Below are positions 3,427-32,698 of a stretch of DNA of 64,000 nucleotides, one piece after another. A model generated the notes under the pieces. That model was not told the DNA's origin, did no database searches, and was given only the letters and a program-made list of their open reading frames with translations. Source of the stretch: Candidatus Omnitrophota bacterium (GTDB lineage: Bacteria > Omnitrophota > Omnitrophia > Omnitrophales > JACROU01). Position 1 is the first letter of the stretch; the number at the start of each line of letters is the position of its first letter. The position numbers and the translations under genes are program-made. The stretch lies in assembly GCA_029261035.1 (NCBI GenBank), contig JAJDCD010000022.1, forward strand, positions 16,063-80,062, read 5' to 3'.

Positions 3427-4170
3427 ATGTTAAGCATTAAAGATTTAACTGCTACGATTGCAGACAAGCAGATTTTGAAGGGGATTAATTTAGAGGTGAA
3501 GGCAGGAGAGGTTCATGCCATTATGGGGCCTAACGGTTCTGGAAAGAGCACTTTAGCTAAGGTTTTGGCTGGAGCACCGCATATTCAAGAAGCAAAAGGT
3601 GAGGTTTTGTTTGAAGGAAAACCTTTGCTGGATATGGCTCCGGAAGACCGAGCTTTGGCAGGTGTGTTTATGGCATTTCAATATCCGGTGGAAGTGCCCG
3701 GGGTGAACAATGCCTCATTTCTAAGAATGGCATATAACGCAAGGTTAAAAGCGGCAGGAAAAGAAGAAGTGGATCCATTGGAGTTTGATGAGTTGCTTAT
3801 TGAAAAATCAAAAATAGTTGAAATTCCAGAACACTTTTTGGATCGGGCTGTAAATCACGGTTTTTCTGGTGGTGAGAAAAAAAGAAATGAAATTTTACAA
3901 ATGGCTGTTCTGGACCCTAAGTTAGCTTTGTTAGATGAAACAGATTCAGGGTTAGATGTAGATGCGCTTCGCATTGTTGCTGGAGGAATTAATAGACTTC
4001 GATCTAAAGATAAAGCTATTATTTTAGTGACGCATTATCAAAGAATCTTAGATTATATTCAACCGGACTTCGTTCATATTTTATTTGATGGACGCATTAT
4101 AAAGTCGGGAGATAAAAGTTTGGCTTTAGAAGTAGAAGAACAAGGTTTTGAGAACATAAAAGCGGGATAG
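3427..4170 (+). CDS. sufC: Fe-S cluster assembly ATPase SufC
   Basis: Walker A GPNGSGKST, ABC signature FSGGEKKR, Walker B LALLDETDSGLD. Start moved to the ATG after the GGGGA RBS; the ORF track starts at 3409. Confidence 0.95.
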   Translation: MLSIKDLTATIADKQILKGINLEVKAGEVHAIMGPNGSGKSTLAKVLAGAPHIQEAKGEVLFEGKPLLDMAPEDRALAGVFMAFQYPVEVPGVNNASFLRMAYNARLKAAGKEEVDPLEFDELLIEKSKIVEIPEHFLDRAVNHGFSGGEKKRNEILQMAVLDPKLALLDETDSGLDVDALRIVAGGINRLRSKDKAIILVTHYQRILDYIQPDFVHILFDGRIIKSGDKSLALEVEEQGFENIKAG

Positions 4171-4281: not shown

Positions 4282-5619
4282 ATGACGGATATAAAACAGA
4301 AATCACAGTTTAAAGAGTGCTTTAATGATAAAAAGCTTTCTTTTGAAAGTTTAGATTGGGTGAAATCTGTCCAAGAGAGGGCATGGACTCAGTTTCAGAG
4401 TTTGGGATTTCCGACTCAAAAGGATGAAGGGTGGAAATATTTTAATATAGAGTCACTTCTTAAGAATTCTTATGAGAGTGAAAGAAATTTTGAGCTTACT
4501 TCAGAGATGACGACGCGTATTCAACGTTATTTCTATGAAGAATCAGCTGCGAGTCGATTAACTTTTTTGAATGGAAAAAAAGAAAGTGGTATGACAAGCT
4601 TAAAAGATTTGCCTGCTGGAGTGGAGTTTCTTCCTTTGTCTGAAGCATTAAAAACGAAAGAAAGTAAAATAAAGCCTTATTTAGGTCTGAATATTGAAAA
4701 AGAAGAAAATGCTTTCAGCGCTTTAAATGCGGCACAGTTTGAAGAAGGCATCTTTTTATACGTACCTAGAGATACGGTTGTTGATATTCCGATTCATTTG
4801 TTGTTTTTTAATTTAAGTTCAGATTCCACACCTTGGATTGCTCATCCGCGTAATATTATTGTTGTCGACGAAGGAGCTAAGCTTAATTTGGTTTATGAAC
4901 AAGTAGGATTGGATGTGAATAGTACTTTAATTAATGTATTTAACCAAATTCATTGTGAGAAAAACTCTTCGGTTCATTATCTTGGGATACAAAGAGAATC
5001 TCTTGGATCTTATCATTTAATGAATTCTCATGTTTATCTTCAAGAGGGAAGTAGCTTTGAAGGGGTTTTGTTTGCTCAGGGTGGTTCTGCAAGAAGAGAT
5101 GAATTTCAGTTCTACATTGAAGGAGAAAATACGCACTGCTCTTTGAAGGGGTTAGGGGTTTTGGCAGGAGAGTCCAAGTTGTTTTCTCATGTGACCGTGC
5201 ATCACCAAAAGCCTCATGGTAGCAGTAAGCAGTTATTTAAAAATATTTTAGCGGACAAAGCTCAATCAGAGTTTAATAGTTTGGTTCATGTATATCCGCA
5301 AGCGCAGAAGTCGGACACACATCAGCTAAATAGAAACCTTTTAGTTTCTGATAAAGCTCGAGCGTATTCTAGGCCGCAGCTTAAGATTGAAGCGGATGAT
5401 GTTCAGTGTGCTCACGGCTCTTCCATAGGTCAAATGGAAGAAGATGAGTTGTTTTATTTGCAAAGTCGTGGATTGAATAAACAACTAGCACGCTTTGTGA
5501 TGACATTTGGATTTGCAGAAGAGGTTTTAGAAGGAATTCAGATTCCAACCTTAAAAAGAGATTTGGAATGTGCGCTTCGAATAGAGTTGGAAACAATACT
5601 GAATAAGCATCAAGTGTAA
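4282..5619 (+). CDS. sufD: Fe-S cluster assembly protein SufD
   Basis: SufB/SufD-family C-terminal β-helix. Start chosen at MTDIKQ after the GGAG RBS; the track ORF begins at 4246 inside an intergenic repeat. Confidence 0.85.
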   Translation: MTDIKQKSQFKECFNDKKLSFESLDWVKSVQERAWTQFQSLGFPTQKDEGWKYFNIESLLKNSYESERNFELTSEMTTRIQRYFYEESAASRLTFLNGKKESGMTSLKDLPAGVEFLPLSEALKTKESKIKPYLGLNIEKEENAFSALNAAQFEEGIFLYVPRDTVVDIPIHLLFFNLSSDSTPWIAHPRNIIVVDEGAKLNLVYEQVGLDVNSTLINVFNQIHCEKNSSVHYLGIQRESLGSYHLMNSHVYLQEGSSFEGVLFAQGGSARRDEFQFYIEGENTHCSLKGLGVLAGESKLFSHVTVHHQKPHGSSKQLFKNILADKAQSEFNSLVHVYPQAQKSDTHQLNRNLLVSDKARAYSRPQLKIEADDVQCAHGSSIGQMEEDELFYLQSRGLNKQLARFVMTFGFAEEVLEGIQIPTLKRDLECALRIELETILNKHQV

Positions 5620-5623
5620 TAAG

Positions 5624-5712
5624 TTTGTCATCCTGAGCGTAGCGAAGGATCTCTGGCAAAGGAGTAAAGTTTTTCGGAAGATTCTTCGTCGCAAAGTTCC
5701 TCAGAATGACAG
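5624..5712. repeat. family A repeat (TTGTCATCCTGAGCGTAGCGAAGGATC … CCTCAGAATGACAG)
   Basis: Between sufD and sufS. Its first 27 nt recur inverted at 41140-41166. Confidence 0.65.
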
Positions 5713-5732
5713 TAAGAGGTAGGTGAATAATC

Positions 5733-6965
5733 ATGTTAACAAAAGACATAATCAACGTAGAAAAAATCAGAAAAGATTTCCCCGTTCTTTCTACTACCAT
5801 GCACAAACATCCTCTAGCTTATTTAGATAATGCAGCAACCACACAAAAACCCCTAGTTGTTATTGATAGAATCAACCGTTTCTTAAAAGAAGAGTATGCA
5901 ACCGTAAGTCGTGGTGTTTATATTCTGAGTCAAAATGCAACTCAAGAATGTCATGAGGTTAGGGAAAAGTGTCAGAAGTTTTTGAATGCAGAGAAATTAG
6001 AAGAGATTATTTTTGTTCGAGGTACGACAGAGGCGATTAATTTAGTGGCAGCATCTTATGGTAGGAAGTTTTTAAAATCAGGAGATGAAATTATCATTTC
6101 TGAGATTGAGCATCACGCAAATATTGTTCCCTGGAAACGATTGAGTGATGAAAAGGGTTTGGTTTTAAAAGTGATTCCTGTTAATGATGAGGGAGAGCTT
6201 ATTCTTGAAGAATACAAAAAAATGCTTACAGAAAAGACCAAATTAGTTGCTGTGGGCCATATTTCGAATGCGTTAGGAACCGTGCATCCGATTAAGCAAA
6301 TTATTAAATGGGCCCATGAAGTAGGGGCGAAGGTCCTTATTGATGGAGCTCAAGGAGCGCCTCATACCAAGGTAGATGTTCAGGAATTAGATTGTGATTT
6401 TTACTGTTTTTCAGGCCATAAGATTTATGGTCCAACTGGGATTGGTATCTTATACGGAAAATATGACTTACTTGATTCTATGGATCCATATCAAGGTGGA
6501 GGTGAGATGATCGAATTGGTGACTTTTGAGAAAATCACCTATGCTAAGCCTCCAAGTCGCTTTGAAGCTGGAACTATTGCTATAGCTGAGATAGTAGGTT
6601 TGGGCCCAGCCTTAGACTATATCGAGAAAATTGGTCTAGAAAAAATAGCTGCTTATGAAGATGAGTTATTGAGAGTAGCAACAGAAAAATTGAAAGAAAT
6701 GGACGATATTACTTTGATTGGAACAGCAAAAGAAAAAGCTGGAATTATTTCTTTTGAGATGGATGAGGTGCATCCGCATGATATAGGCACTATTTTAGAT
6801 CAAGAAGGCGTAGCTATTCGGACGGGGCATCATTGCGCTCAGCCAACGATGAAACGGTTTGGTGTGCCTGCAACAGCTCGCGCCTCGTTTTCGTTTTATA
6901 ATAACCAACAAGATCTAGAGGCTCTTTTTAGAGGGTTGGACAAGGTGAGGGAGGTGTTTAAATGA
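5733..6965 (+). CDS. sufS: cysteine desulfurase SufS (class V aminotransferase)
   Basis: PLP-lysine motif FSGHKIYGPTGIG and active-site Cys loop RTGHHCAQP, 410 aa. Confidence 0.93.
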   Translation: MLTKDIINVEKIRKDFPVLSTTMHKHPLAYLDNAATTQKPLVVIDRINRFLKEEYATVSRGVYILSQNATQECHEVREKCQKFLNAEKLEEIIFVRGTTEAINLVAASYGRKFLKSGDEIIISEIEHHANIVPWKRLSDEKGLVLKVIPVNDEGELILEEYKKMLTEKTKLVAVGHISNALGTVHPIKQIIKWAHEVGAKVLIDGAQGAPHTKVDVQELDCDFYCFSGHKIYGPTGIGILYGKYDLLDSMDPYQGGGEMIELVTFEKITYAKPPSRFEAGTIAIAEIVGLGPALDYIEKIGLEKIAAYEDELLRVATEKLKEMDDITLIGTAKEKAGIISFEMDEVHPHDIGTILDQEGVAIRTGHHCAQPTMKRFGVPATARASFSFYNNQQDLEALFRGLDKVREVFK

Positions 6966-28430: not shown

Positions 28431-28459
28431 GGCATGGTTTGGGTACTATGCCCTTTTTT
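28431..28459 (+). terminator. rho-independent terminator after porin gene
   Basis: GGGCATggtttgggtactATGCCC followed by TTTTTTA. Confidence 0.7.
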
Positions 28460-28490: not shown

Positions 28491-28510
28491 AATGTGATCT
28501 AGATCACATT
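28491..28510. promoter_or_regulatory. 20-bp perfect palindrome AATGTGATCTAGATCACATT (CRP-type box), class-II spacing to TACAAT −10 (28530-28535)
   Basis: Seen in sequence. Centre to −10 is 29.5 bp; it lies upstream of nrdD. Confidence 0.65.
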
Positions 28511-28581
28511 TTTAACCTTAGATCTTGTATACAATATTTTCTACCTACGATATATAGACACTTTATTCCAAGGAGGGTTTT

Positions 28582-30612
28582 ATGGAGAAGATGTTTCCGG
28601 CTTGCCGAGTTGATGTTGTAAGAAAGAGAAGTGGAGAAACGGTTTCTTTTGATGCGGAAAGAATTAGAAATGCAATTTTAAAAGCAGGGCAAGCAGCCGG
28701 TGAATTTGAAGAGGATGATGCAAATCTCTTAACACTTCAAGTGATTAAAGTTTTAGAAAATAGGTATGATCGAGGAACGTTAGAGATTGAAGAAATTCAG
28801 GATATTGTAGAACAGGTTTTGATTTCAGCAAACTTTTTGAAGACAGCAAGAGCCTATATTGTTTATAGAGAACAACACAAAAATTTAAGAAGAGCAAAAA
28901 AGACAGTTGTGGATGTTGTTTCTTCTGTAAATGAATATTTAGATCGTTTGGATTGGCGTGTGAATGCAAATGCAAATCAAGGGTTTTCATTAGGAGGAAT
29001 GATTCTTAATATTTCGGGGAAAGTCGTGGCGAATTATTGGTTAAGTCATGTCTACCCTCAAGAGGTAGGAGAGGCGCATCGTCAAGCGGATATTCATATT
29101 CATGACTTGGATATGCTTTCGGGTTATTGTGCTGGATGGTCCTTGAGATTGTTGCTTGAAGAAGGTTTTAATGGAGTTCCAGGAAAAATTGAGTCTGGGC
29201 CACCAAAGCATCTTTCTTCTGTCGTTGGTCAGATGGTTAACTTTTTGGGGACATTGCAAAATGAATGGGCGGGAGCTCAGGCGTTTTCTTCGTTTGATAC
29301 TTACTTAGCTCCATATGTGCGTCAGGACCTTTTGACATACCCCGAAGTGAAACAGTGTGTTCAGGAGTTTATTTATAATTTAAATGTGCCTTCTCGTTGG
29401 GGGACTCAAACGCCTTTTACTAATGTTACTTTTGATTGGGTGTGTCCGGAAGATTTGAAAGACCAAGTGCCACAGATTGCAGGTGAGGAAATGCCGTTTA
29501 CCTATGGGGAACTGCAACCTGAGATGGATATGATTAATCGAGCTTATATTGATGTGATGTTGCAGGGAGATGCGAAAGGAAGAGTGTTTACGTTTCCTAT
29601 TCCTACATACAATATCACTAAAGATTTTGATTGGGATCATCCTAATTGCAATACTCTTTTTGAAATGACGGCCAAATATGGGCTTCCTTATTTTCAGAAT
29701 TTTTTAAATTCGGATATGCAGCCCAACCAAATTCGATCGATGTGTTGCCGTCTGCAATTGGATTTAAGAGAATTGTTGAAGCGTGGAAATGGTTTGTTTG
29801 GTTCTGCGGAACAAACAGGATCTATTGGAGTTGTAACGATTAATTGTGCTCGTCTTGGCTATTTGTATGCGGGTGATGAAAAAGCTTTGCTTAATAGAAT
29901 TGATGAACTTGCTTTATTGGCTAAGGAGAGTTTGGAAATTAAGAGAAAGGTGATTCAGCGTTATATTGATGCTGGACTTTTTCCTTATACCAAGCGTTAT
30001 TTAGGCACTTTGAGAAATCATTTTTCTACGATTGGGGTTAATGGAGTTAATGAATGTGTTCGGAATTTTACAGAAGGAAAACAAGATATCACGCACCCAG
30101 AAGGTCACGCTTTTTCAGTGAGGATATTAGAATCCATCAGAGAACGGCTGAAGCAGTTTCAAGAAGAGACGGGTAATTTATATAACTTAGAAGCGACACC
30201 CGCAGAAGGAACTACTTATCGTTTTGCTAAAGAAGATAAGAAGCGTTTTCCTGAAATTTTGCAGGCAGGCACCAAAGAGAGACCTTATTACACGAACTCA
30301 TCACAGCTGCCTGTTGGGTTTACAGATGATCCTTTTGAAGCCTTAGCGCAGCAAGATGAGCTTCAGACAAAATATACGGGTGGAACGGTACTTCATCTTT
30401 ATATGGGGGAACGTATTTCAAGTTCAGATTCTTGTAAGAAGTTAGTAAAACGAGTTCTTGAGACACATAGGTTGCCTTATATTACGATTTCGCCCACGTT
30501 TTCTGTATGTCCTAATCATGGATATTTGGAAGGGGAGCATAAGTATTGTCCTAAATGTGATATTGAAATTTTGAATCGTAAATCTCAATCGTCTGAACCG
30601 GTGACTGTATAA
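28582..30612 (+). CDS. nrdD: anaerobic ribonucleoside-triphosphate reductase NrdD, large polypeptide (ATP-cone + catalytic barrel + Zn ribbon), lacking glycyl-radical tail
   Basis: N-terminal ATP-cone (VDVVRKRSGETVSFDAERIRNAIL). C-terminal CPNHGY…CPKCD ribbon, then a stop. Confidence 0.88.
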   Translation: MEKMFPACRVDVVRKRSGETVSFDAERIRNAILKAGQAAGEFEEDDANLLTLQVIKVLENRYDRGTLEIEEIQDIVEQVLISANFLKTARAYIVYREQHKNLRRAKKTVVDVVSSVNEYLDRLDWRVNANANQGFSLGGMILNISGKVVANYWLSHVYPQEVGEAHRQADIHIHDLDMLSGYCAGWSLRLLLEEGFNGVPGKIESGPPKHLSSVVGQMVNFLGTLQNEWAGAQAFSSFDTYLAPYVRQDLLTYPEVKQCVQEFIYNLNVPSRWGTQTPFTNVTFDWVCPEDLKDQVPQIAGEEMPFTYGELQPEMDMINRAYIDVMLQGDAKGRVFTFPIPTYNITKDFDWDHPNCNTLFEMTAKYGLPYFQNFLNSDMQPNQIRSMCCRLQLDLRELLKRGNGLFGSAEQTGSIGVVTINCARLGYLYAGDEKALLNRIDELALLAKESLEIKRKVIQRYIDAGLFPYTKRYLGTLRNHFSTIGVNGVNECVRNFTEGKQDITHPEGHAFSVRILESIRERLKQFQEETGNLYNLEATPAEGTTYRFAKEDKKRFPEILQAGTKERPYYTNSSQLPVGFTDDPFEALAQQDELQTKYTGGTVLHLYMGERISSSDSCKKLVKRVLETHRLPYITISPTFSVCPNHGYLEGEHKYCPKCDIEILNRKSQSSEPVTV

Positions 30613-30636
30613 AGGTTGCCTTAAAAAGGAGGGGCT

Positions 30637-30798
30637 ATGAGCAAGGAAGCTAATCTTAAAGATGAAGAACGACAAGAGTGTGAAGTTTGGACAAGAGTGA
30701 TGGGGTACCATAGACCTGTTTCAGAGTATAACCTAGGAAAGAAAGGGGAGTACGATGAGAGGCAATGCTTTAGCGAACCTTGTGGAAAAAAGGAGTAG
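30637..30798 (+). CDS. separate 53-aa NrdD glycyl-radical domain ORF
   Basis: Own RBS AAAGGAGG. Translation …TRVMGYHRPVSEYNLGKKGEYDER… matches the class-III RNR Gly-radical motif (T4: RRTCAYLGNPNERGFNLGKNKEI). It is in the same frame as nrdD but separated by two in-frame stops. Confidence 0.6.
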   Translation: MSKEANLKDEERQECEVWTRVMGYHRPVSEYNLGKKGEYDERQCFSEPCGKKE

Positions 30799-31513
30799 TG
30801 TTTCTGTAGACAAAAATTGGTGTCGGCTTCCGGTGGGTGGGATTACCCCATTTACCACTATCGATTTCCCTAATCGTCTAGCAGCAGTAATTTATACCCA
30901 TGGTTGTTCTTGGAGTTGTCGGTATTGCCATAATGCAGAGTTGAGAGGCTCTTCGGATCACCCTTTCGATTTTGAGAAATTAATTCAATTTCTTGAAGAC
31001 AGAAAAGGGAAGTTGGATGGAGTTGTTTTCTCTGGAGGAGAACCTAGTATTCATGATTCTTTATCCACTTGGATGCGTTATGCAAAAACGCTTGGGTATG
31101 AAGTTGGGTTGCACACTAGCGGAATGTTTCCAGAGCGCTTAAAGAATTTGTTGCCTTTGTGTGATTGGGTGGGAATGGATATTAAAGCGCCTTTTAACAA
31201 TTATGATAAAGTTACGCTTGTTGAAGAAAGTGGCATTGAAGCGAAAAAAAGTGCGCGTTTACTTTTGGATAGTGGTGTAGATTATGAATTTAGAACAACA
31301 GTTCATCCAAATCTTCTTTCAGAGAATGATATTAAAAATATAGCTAGAGAGCTTGAGGAGATGGGTGCGAAACGTTTTGTAATTCAAGCTTTTCAGCCCG
31401 AAGGATGTGAGGATGAAGAGTTGAGCCAAGTGAAGATGCCGGTACCTATTATATCGGAAGAGCTTTATCATTTTTTAGATTGTAAGTTTGATTTTGTGGA
31501 TGTAAGGCAGTAG
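30755..31513 (+). CDS. nrdG: anaerobic RNR activating protein NrdG (radical SAM)
   Basis: CSWSCRYCHN motif. Its start is uncertain and it overlaps the small ORF. Confidence 0.85.
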   Translation: MRGNALANLVEKRSSVSVDKNWCRLPVGGITPFTTIDFPNRLAAVIYTHGCSWSCRYCHNAELRGSSDHPFDFEKLIQFLEDRKGKLDGVVFSGGEPSIHDSLSTWMRYAKTLGYEVGLHTSGMFPERLKNLLPLCDWVGMDIKAPFNNYDKVTLVEESGIEAKKSARLLLDSGVDYEFRTTVHPNLLSENDIKNIARELEEMGAKRFVIQAFQPEGCEDEELSQVKMPVPIISEELYHFLDCKFDFVDVRQ

Positions 31514-31681: not shown

Positions 31682-32698
31682 ATGAACCATCAAGACTATC
31701 TTGTTGACTCATACGGTCGACGACTATCTTATCTTAGACTTTCATTAACCGAATTGTGTAATTTTCGTTGCATCTATTGCATGCCTGAAGAAGGTGTGCC
31801 TGTGGTGCCTCCCTCAAAATATCTAACCCGAGATGAAATCTTACGTTTTACTAAAATTATAGGCCGCTTAGGTGTTCACCGTATTCGATTAACCGGTGGA
31901 GAGCCTTTGTTGCGGGAAGATATTCTGGATATTGTCCGAGCTCTTAAAAGTATTGAGACCGTAAAAGAGCTTTCTTTAACAACCAACGCGAGCCGTTTGG
32001 GACCTCTCGTAAATTCTCTTAAAGAGGCGGGACTAGACCGGATTAATATTAGTTTGGATAGTCTAGACCCAGAGAGGTTTAAAGAAATCACCTTAAAGGA
32101 TGTTTATTATGAAGTGTTAGATGCTACTTTTTCTGCGCTTCGAGCAGGATTTCCAGTAAAACTCAACATGGTTGTTTTGAAAGGAATTAGCGATGAGGAG
32201 ATTCTAGAGTTTGCCAAGATGGCTTATGACTTTCCATTGGATGTTCGTTTCTTAGAGTTTATGCCTTTGTGTGGAACAGGTTGGAAACCAGAGTGGGTTC
32301 TTCCTATTGAACATGTTCGTCAAGTGATTCATCAGCATTTTGAGCTGACAGAGGAAAAGAATCGAAAGGACGATGTTGCTCAGAATTATATGATTCACGG
32401 AGGAAAGGGCAAGATTGGTTTAATTGCTTCTCTAACAGAATCTTTTTGTGACCAATGTTCTCGAATCCGTTTGAGTGCAGATGGAAGTCTTTACCCGTGC
32501 CTTTTTTCAGACAAAGAGGTGTCTGTTAAAGATTTGCTTCGCAGTCATGCATCCGATGAAGCAATTATTGAAGCGATTCGTTATGCGGCTTCGATTAAAC
32601 CTAAGGGCAATTGGTTTTATGAAAACAAATTTAATGAAAAAGAGTCTCCTATTGAACAATTACAGTCTCATCCAATGATTCGTTCTATAGGCGGATAA
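31682..32698 (+). CDS. moaA: GTP 3',8-cyclase MoaA
   Basis: CNFRCIYCMP radical-SAM motif plus a C-terminal second cluster. Confidence 0.93.
   Translation: MNHQDYLVDSYGRRLSYLRLSLTELCNFRCIYCMPEEGVPVVPPSKYLTRDEILRFTKIIGRLGVHRIRLTGGEPLLREDILDIVRALKSIETVKELSLTTNASRLGPLVNSLKEAGLDRINISLDSLDPERFKEITLKDVYYEVLDATFSALRAGFPVKLNMVVLKGISDEEILEFAKMAYDFPLDVRFLEFMPLCGTGWKPEWVLPIEHVRQVIHQHFELTEEKNRKDDVAQNYMIHGGKGKIGLIASLTESFCDQCSRIRLSADGSLYPCLFSDKEVSVKDLLRSHASDEAIIEAIRYAASIKPKGNWFYENKFNEKESPIEQLQSHPMIRSIGG

Follow-up and report, generated by a model that had tools for sequence, protein, structure and literature searches.

A class III ribonucleotide reductase with its predicted radical loop encoded on a separate small protein

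Introduction

In textbooks and current reviews, the class III ribonucleotide reductase (RNR) is one catalytic chain, NrdD, that carries a glycyl radical at its C-terminus and is served by an activase, NrdG. The described single-chain systems of Escherichia coli, phage T4, Thermotoga maritima and Prevotella copri share an identical domain order (ATP-cone, barrel, zinc ribbon and RVxGY glycine loop), and the gene for the radical S-adenosylmethionine (radical-SAM) activase lies next door. Here we describe an nrdD locus in 64,000 nucleotides (nt) of DNA from a Candidatus Omnitrophota bacterium (GCA_029261035.1, contig JAJDCD010000022.1, positions 16,063 to 80,062), a stretch that we call the window and whose coordinates we use throughout. 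The domains and the neighboring activase gene are the same as in the single-chain systems, whereas the chain breaks off after the zinc ribbon, and a 53-codon open reading frame (ORF) of its own encodes the glycine loop. A first-pass annotation of the window had noticed this small ORF and offered two explanations for it, namely a stand-alone radical subunit analogous to GrcA/YfiD, or a readthrough or recoding event that would reunite the two ORFs.

To our knowledge, a replaceable radical part is known only for pyruvate formate-lyase, where GrcA/YfiD and T4 Y06I are likewise small stand-alone glycine-loop proteins, presumably activated by the enzyme's activase, and where phage copies occur too. 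The likeness has its limits: GrcA belongs to the Gly_radical family (PF01228) and its partner enzyme has a loop of its own, whereas the small protein of the window belongs to the NrdD family and its partner is loop-less, hence the small protein would be obligatory. As a formal parallel, the split class II enzyme NrdJa/NrdJb of Pseudomonas aeruginosa comes closest. Its catalytic chain is likewise spread over two consecutive genes, and turnover depends on a zinc-finger or redox element in the C-terminal piece (PMC4520616, PMC9669993). NrdJ differs, however, in being of another class with adenosylcobalamin chemistry, and its split-off part is large and supplies reducing cysteines, not a radical. 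A 2015 RNR paper calls the split NrdJ unique, a 2026 review knows small radical proteins only in formate lyases, and both the Torrents 2014 review and the papers of Burnim et al. 2022 treat the radical domain as the C-terminus of NrdD. Our own literature searches returned no description of a split class III RNR, with the proviso that a brief mention is possible, for example in Siedow et al. 1999 or Wei et al. 2014.

Results

The locus consists of three genes on the forward strand. The large nrdD ORF (28582-30612, +) encodes 676 amino acids (aa) without a radical glycine, the small radical-subunit ORF (30637-30798, +) encodes 53 aa with a match to Pfam NRDD, and the nrdG activase ORF, taken from its first ATG (30755-31513, +), encodes a radical-SAM protein of 252 aa. 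The first-pass description of the junction holds in every particular: the large ORF ends shortly after its zinc ribbon, the two ORFs share a frame in the window across a gap of 24 nt and are kept apart by two TAA stops in the nrdD frame (30610-30612 and 30622-30624, both +), a Shine-Dalgarno sequence AAGGAGG (30626-30632, +) stands 4 nt before the small ORF's ATG at 30637, and the small ORF overlaps the nrdG start, with 44 nt shared from the first nrdG ATG at 30755. An overlap of the same 44 nt is also called in the close relative L001 and in the RefSeq annotation of Bradyrhizobium ottawaense. We found no promoter-like or terminator-like site between nrdD, the small ORF and nrdG.

The large protein aligns with positions 2-534 of the 562 of the Pfam NRDD profile (PF13597; 595.9 bits against a cut-off of 26.2) and scores 1147.7 bits against NCBIfam PRK08270 (cut-off 548), and its residues 12-100 form an ATP-cone according to Pfam. 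The motif GYCAGW (residues 181-186, 29122-29139) and the finger-loop motif SMCCR (residues 386-390, 29737-29751) correspond to Tyr124-Cys125 and to the SCCR motif described for T. maritima NrdD (PMC4493059). The zinc ribbon follows as C-x2-H...C-x2-C (CPNH...CPKC, 30508-30558), and beyond it the protein has a tail of just 17 residues, ending ...CPNHGYLEGEHKYCPKCDIEILNRKSQSSEPVTV before the TAA. The RVxGY glycine loop is thus not on the barrel polypeptide. In alignments with solved chains, the large ORF can be followed to the second zinc-ribbon CPKC of P. copri NrdD (699-702 of 743) and over residues 102-609 of T. maritima NrdD.

The missing part is found on the small ORF, which carries RVMGY at residues 20-24, with Gly23 (codon GGG, 30703-30705) as the predicted radical glycine. 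It matches the last 32 positions of Pfam NRDD (530-561 of 562; E 4e-7, 29.5 bits, cut-off 26.2) and positions 648-682 of the 684 of PRK08270. The glycyl-radical motif noted in the first pass is therefore there. As to Gly_radical, the family that the first pass proposed for comparison, a Pfam scan of the 53-aa ORF with E values up to 1 gave PF13597 NRDD only. The first pass had also allowed for a motif elsewhere in the large ORF combined with a poorly conserved small ORF. All six frames of the 64-kb window hold no glycyl-radical motif besides that of the small ORF, and the small ORF is well conserved. In an alignment of 28 small-protein homologues, 22 columns are invariant across phyla (E R Q. 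C E. W T R V M G Y. R P V ... N. G K), with an invariant core of ERQxCEVWTRVMGYHRPV..N.GK. The profile of these 28 homologues aligns to the glycine loop of T. maritima NrdD, MRIVGYLVPVSAFN (residues 617-644), including Gly621, which the structure paper gives as the radical site of that enzyme, on a C-terminal loop that reaches down into the barrel as far as the finger loop (PMC4493059).

Because the two T. maritima alignments are complementary (residues 102-609 for the large ORF and 617-644 for the small one), the two ORFs represent adjacent, non-overlapping parts of one known chain, and by alignment the cut is located between the zinc ribbon and the glycine loop. In terms of the glycyl-radical domain of the structural papers, the zinc-ribbon half stays on the large protein, the detached part being limited to the glycine loop and what follows it. 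In fused relatives, the uncut junction can still be read, as ...CPNHGYIAGEQETCPTCLSRTEIWTRVMGYFRP in P0134 (62% identity) and ...CPSCKQAITVWSRVMGYHRPV in P0130 (58% identity), and only 5-8 residues lead from the zinc ribbon to the glycine loop. Compared with the single-chain enzymes, both halves of the split protein have gained sequence at the cut. The C-terminus of the large subunits is a conserved tail, C-P-x-C-D-x-E-[IL]-[IL]-x-x-K, which reads CDIEILNRK in the window, and the small subunits share an N-terminal L-x-D-x-E-R-Q-x-C that ends on an invariant cysteine. In the window this is Cys15 (30679-30681), eight residues before Gly23, and it is present in all small subunits examined, whereas the same position is variable among single-chain relatives. 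Cys15 might bind zinc between the subunits or take part in redox chemistry. Both parts are under strong purifying selection, and for the small ORF the comparison of the window with L001 gives 12 synonymous and 5 non-synonymous codon changes. Apart from its loop not being on the same chain, then, the system of the window is a class III RNR by all sequence criteria, and neither ORF alone is a complete NrdD. The activase fits the same picture, matching NCBIfam TIGR02495 NrdG2 (187 bits, cut-off 131) and Pfam Radical_SAM, with the CX3CX2C motif CSWSCRYC at residues 51-58 (30905-30928).

The split extends well beyond this genome, and the gene split, its conservation and the homology of the products to two contiguous parts of solved NrdD chains are all observed directly. 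A scan of one representative genome per species (GTDB) yielded at least 598 relatives of the small protein, of which the best 80 were used for all locus counts given here for genomes. In 68 of these 80, a loop-less nrdD lies immediately upstream, which bears out the first-pass suggestion to look for the same split in related genomes, and in 64 of the 68 nrdG lies immediately downstream; the small gene is fused to another in none of the 80. The three-gene order is identical on contigs of a close relative, of Accumulibacter and of Acidobacteria. Across 77 loci, the frame of the small ORF relative to that of nrdD is 0 in 25 cases, 1 in 22 and 2 in 30. Apart from three mis-assigned or atypical rows, the distances range from -4 nt (an ATGA overlap, nine loci) to +221 nt, and in most loci the small ORF has its own Shine-Dalgarno site. 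Stop-to-stop frames of about 700 codons do surround the small ORF in a few high-GC loci (L050, L055, L060, L074); they lie in a frame other than that of nrdD and are not fusions. At the protein level, 677 database relatives of the small protein were found, and the best 120 are all of 53-80 aa and come from many phyla.

The large protein tells the same story. Its closest named relatives come from metagenome-assembled genomes (MAGs) of Omnitrophota, the source organism itself having a G+C content of 38%. The closest 120 clusters are 73-87% identical to it, none has the loop, and 118 are 670-691 aa long; the outliers are P0339 (1012 aa), which contains an intein, and P0342 (748 aa), which contains an internal duplication. 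P0342 was considered as a fused form and ruled out, the duplication being an artefact and the chain still ending after the zinc ribbon. More widely, we took the best 150 representatives of the large protein from clusters at 50% identity and sorted them with a motif script: 46 have the loop on the same chain, 64 end loop-less after the zinc ribbon, and 40 are fragments or unclassifiable. Several tail types occur among the loop-less representatives. Repeated emergence of the split is therefore possible, perhaps with a different small partner in each case.

Two further observations concern these more distant NrdD proteins. At about 50% identity, other loop-less types (P0141, P0149, P0150, P0157, P0171, P0184 and others) have differing endings, one of which reads ...FCPYPHTEE... 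and lacks the second CxxC, and others of which are long charged tails, possibly coiled-coil. In addition, many of the representatives P0121-P0270 are 1000-1880 aa long with two to five separate matched stretches, which points to one to four inteins in the barrel, split-type large subunits included.

Named organisms with the split arrangement include Cupriavidus necator H16, where RefSeq lists on megaplasmid pHG1 a 676-aa 'ribonucleoside triphosphate reductase', a 66-aa 'nrdD' and an activase, and Bradyrhizobium, where the arrangement is seen as well. For Paracoccus, Ralstonia solanacearum, Cupriavidus metallidurans and others in a plasmid collection, the evidence is a match to the small protein itself. 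The genome paper of C. metallidurans lists 'NrdDG (Rmet_5137, Rmet_5139)' and leaves out the gene between (PMC2864759). The same paper, citing Siedow 1999, states that nrdDG of pHG1 is needed for complete denitrification in strain H16 (PMC2864759), and this requirement indicates that a split-type operon is functional in vivo, with the small ORF as the likely radical carrier in C. necator. In RefSeq, both genes are named nrdD; since pipelines call the small gene 'nrdD', curators must have met it. Literature searches by locus tag gave no relevant transcript or proteome data on the small gene.

The small gene also travels by itself. In 10-12 of the best 80 genome loci (L005, L006, L012-L014, L016, L018, L020, L022, L027, L063 and L083), nrdD and nrdG are both absent within 4 kb. 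Several Sutterella species carry such an orphan with identical flanking genes, a Bacteroidales MAG has the small gene alone, and in two MAGs of gut Alphaproteobacteria (L012, L020) the orphan lies beside ORFs whose N-termini look phage-lysozyme-like, to judge from those sequences alone. The viral contigs of IMG/VR contain 415 stretches that code for small-protein relatives. In the best 80 of these (L091-L170), the small gene is a stand-alone ORF every time, and in 74 of the 80 neither nrdD nor nrdG lies within 4 kb. The viral neighbors sampled are an integrase and a primase/helicase in L091 (small gene at 4001-4141) and a tail fibre and a DNA helicase in L105 (4001-4141); in L116 (4001-4144), two radical-SAM proteins are encoded just upstream (L116:1746-3997). 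By analogy with T4 Y06I and pyruvate formate-lyase, the phage copies look like an auxiliary gene for the host's anaerobic RNR. Together, orphan and phage copies support the view of the small protein as an independent, transferable module.

Upstream of nrdD in the window, a terminator-like hairpin (28441-28453) is followed by a perfect 16-bp palindrome, TGTGATCTAGATCACA (28493-28508, 74 nt upstream of the nrdD start), which we read from the sequence. The close relative L001 has GTGATGTATGTCAC in its position (about 2846-2859 of L001). To judge from its sequence, the palindrome is a candidate operator, through which a regulator of the CRP/FNR family would probably bring about anaerobic induction. 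AT-rich palindromes resembling NrdR boxes come after it, at about 28535-28565. At the other end of the locus, a molybdenum-cofactor riboswitch (Rfam RF01055, 31525-31648, +; 37.8 bits against a gathering score of 36) is placed between nrdG and a moaA-like gene (31682-32698). Elsewhere, in Accumulibacter and Acidobacteria (L003:4887-6008; L007:1-1941 and 4923-5882), the split operon directly adjoins genes for the large and/or small subunit of a class I RNR, forming a mixed aerobic/anaerobic RNR cluster.

Discussion

Overall, we believe that the locus very probably encodes a class III RNR of two polypeptides, with the radical loop as a separate, indispensable subunit that NrdG activates. We infer co-transcription, complex formation and NrdG activation of the small protein, and a plausible course of events can be outlined. 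The genes for the large subunit, the small subunit and NrdG form one compact cluster and would most likely be co-transcribed and translationally coupled. The 676-aa protein would supply the allosteric ATP-cone, the catalytic barrel with its finger-loop cysteines and the zinc ribbon, and the 53-aa protein would supply the Gly23 loop that an ordinary NrdD has at its own C-terminal end. NrdG, as a radical-SAM enzyme, would abstract a hydrogen from Gly23. The loop of the small protein would then face Cys388/Cys389 inside the large subunit's barrel and pass the radical on, with catalysis proceeding as in single-chain NrdD. That the small protein would be obligate and not a spare follows from the large protein having no glycine loop.

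Several points weigh against this reading, or at least temper it. Support for the 53-aa product, for its complex and for a radical on Gly23 is at the level of sequence only. A second, single-chain nrdD may exist elsewhere in the genome, of which the 64-kb window is the part covered here. Orphan and phage copies show that the small gene is not always tied to a partner gene, so that in some genomes its product may act as a spare part. Finally, an AlphaFold2 model of an artificial fusion of large and small proteins reached a mean predicted local distance difference test score (pLDDT) of 62, with the loop region below 50, and is neutral on docking. Its input alignment held 10 large and 27 small homologues, an earlier fusion alignment with 31 large homologues having scattered the small proteins; the alignment is shallow because the available homologues are all at least 73% identical. 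In this low-confidence model, Gly23 lies at the tip of a beta-hairpin with a helix after it.

A spare-part role is also the alternative that fares best as a general explanation of the small protein, and even so we think it unlikely. According to this model, the small protein would do nothing but rescue an oxygen-cleaved, complete NrdD encoded elsewhere, as GrcA/YfiD and T4 Y06I do for pyruvate formate-lyase (PMC8683613), and the truncated nrdD next to it would be independent of it. The small gene does occur alone, in 10-12 of 80 bacterial and 74 of 80 phage loci. Against this, 68 of 80 genome loci have it directly behind an nrdD without a radical glycine, all 120 of the closest large-subunit clusters lack the loop, and there can be no spare for a part never possessed; the small ORF, moreover, matches NRDD (PF13597) and not GrcA's Gly_radical family. 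The comparison with GrcA/YfiD made in the first pass is therefore apt in one respect, that of a small stand-alone radical protein, and misleading in another, in that GrcA backs up an enzyme with its own radical domain and here the partner has none.

A short RVxGY peptide suffices to bind a glycyl-radical activase, as is known from work on pyruvate formate-lyase activase, and one could accordingly imagine the small protein as a substrate mimic, a regulator or decoy acting by titration or control of NrdG, or by capping the barrel, and never as the catalytic carrier of the radical. We regard this as very unlikely. It would leave the large subunit without a radical source, and yet this type of operon supports anaerobic growth in C. 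necator; and conservation in the small protein falls on the residues that make up the functional loop of solved NrdD chains.

Recoding deserves still less credence. Stop-codon readthrough or ribosomal bypass to give one NrdD of 730 residues gains some appeal from the window alone, where the two ORFs share a frame and lie 24 nt apart. Two in-frame TAA stops intervene, however, a strong Shine-Dalgarno site and an ATG belong to the small ORF itself, and no conserved RNA family was found in the gap. Relatives use all three frames (25, 22 and 30 loci), with gaps of up to 221 nt in some and 4-nt ATGA overlaps in others, and with such a spread no recoding mechanism fits. Of the two explanations offered in the first pass, the comparative data thus decide for the stand-alone subunit, on the strength of frames, gaps and the loop-less nrdD upstream. 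Sequencing or assembly errors, or a recently broken pseudogene, would have only the a-priori error frequency of draft assemblies in their favor and can be set aside, given the identical split in independent complete genomes and plasmids from many phyla, the strong purifying selection on both parts, and a conserved large-subunit tail and small-subunit N-terminus where fused relatives have a junction of 5-8 residues. These data exclude assembly error, pseudogene and recoding alike.

If the small protein is an obligate subunit, one may ask what is gained by detaching it. Oxygen cleaves glycyl-radical proteins at the glycine (PMC13450708), and we speculate that a detached 6-kDa subunit lets the cell replace the damaged piece cheaply. 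This speculation fits the many denitrifiers and facultative anaerobes among the named hosts, and it fits the orphan and phage copies. We can take the idea one step further, as a possibility that we hold only tentatively and consider somewhat doubtful, and picture the 6-kDa protein as a consumable, exchangeable 'radical cartridge' that may acquire its radical from NrdG while still a free peptide, takes its place in the large subunit and is swapped after oxygen cleavage, with phages carrying the cartridge gene only. If this were true, bacteria that alternate between oxic and anoxic conditions would be able to repair their class III RNR, and phages would exploit this modularity, boosting or restoring the host's anaerobic synthesis of deoxyribonucleoside triphosphates. 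The formate lyases would then no longer be alone in having a GrcA-like system, and nature would offer a glycyl-radical enzyme in two pieces, whose activation and docking could be studied separately.

Regardless of how the small protein is used, a large and widespread branch of NrdD appears to place the radical loop on its own protein of 50-70 residues. This branch takes in enzymes of well-studied denitrifiers, namely C. necator H16, Paracoccus denitrificans, Ralstonia solanacearum and Bradyrhizobium. For such organisms, expressing 'NrdD + NrdG' without the small gene should fail, and gene lists such as 'NrdDG = Rmet_5137, Rmet_5139' would omit a required component. The access of the activase to a glycine buried in the barrel is a long-standing problem for glycyl-radical enzymes, and a loop that exists as a separate peptide would provide a natural model system for it. 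In this context, an RNR counterpart of the replaceable radical part of pyruvate formate-lyase, one that is also carried alone by phages, would widen the idea of repair by replaceable parts.

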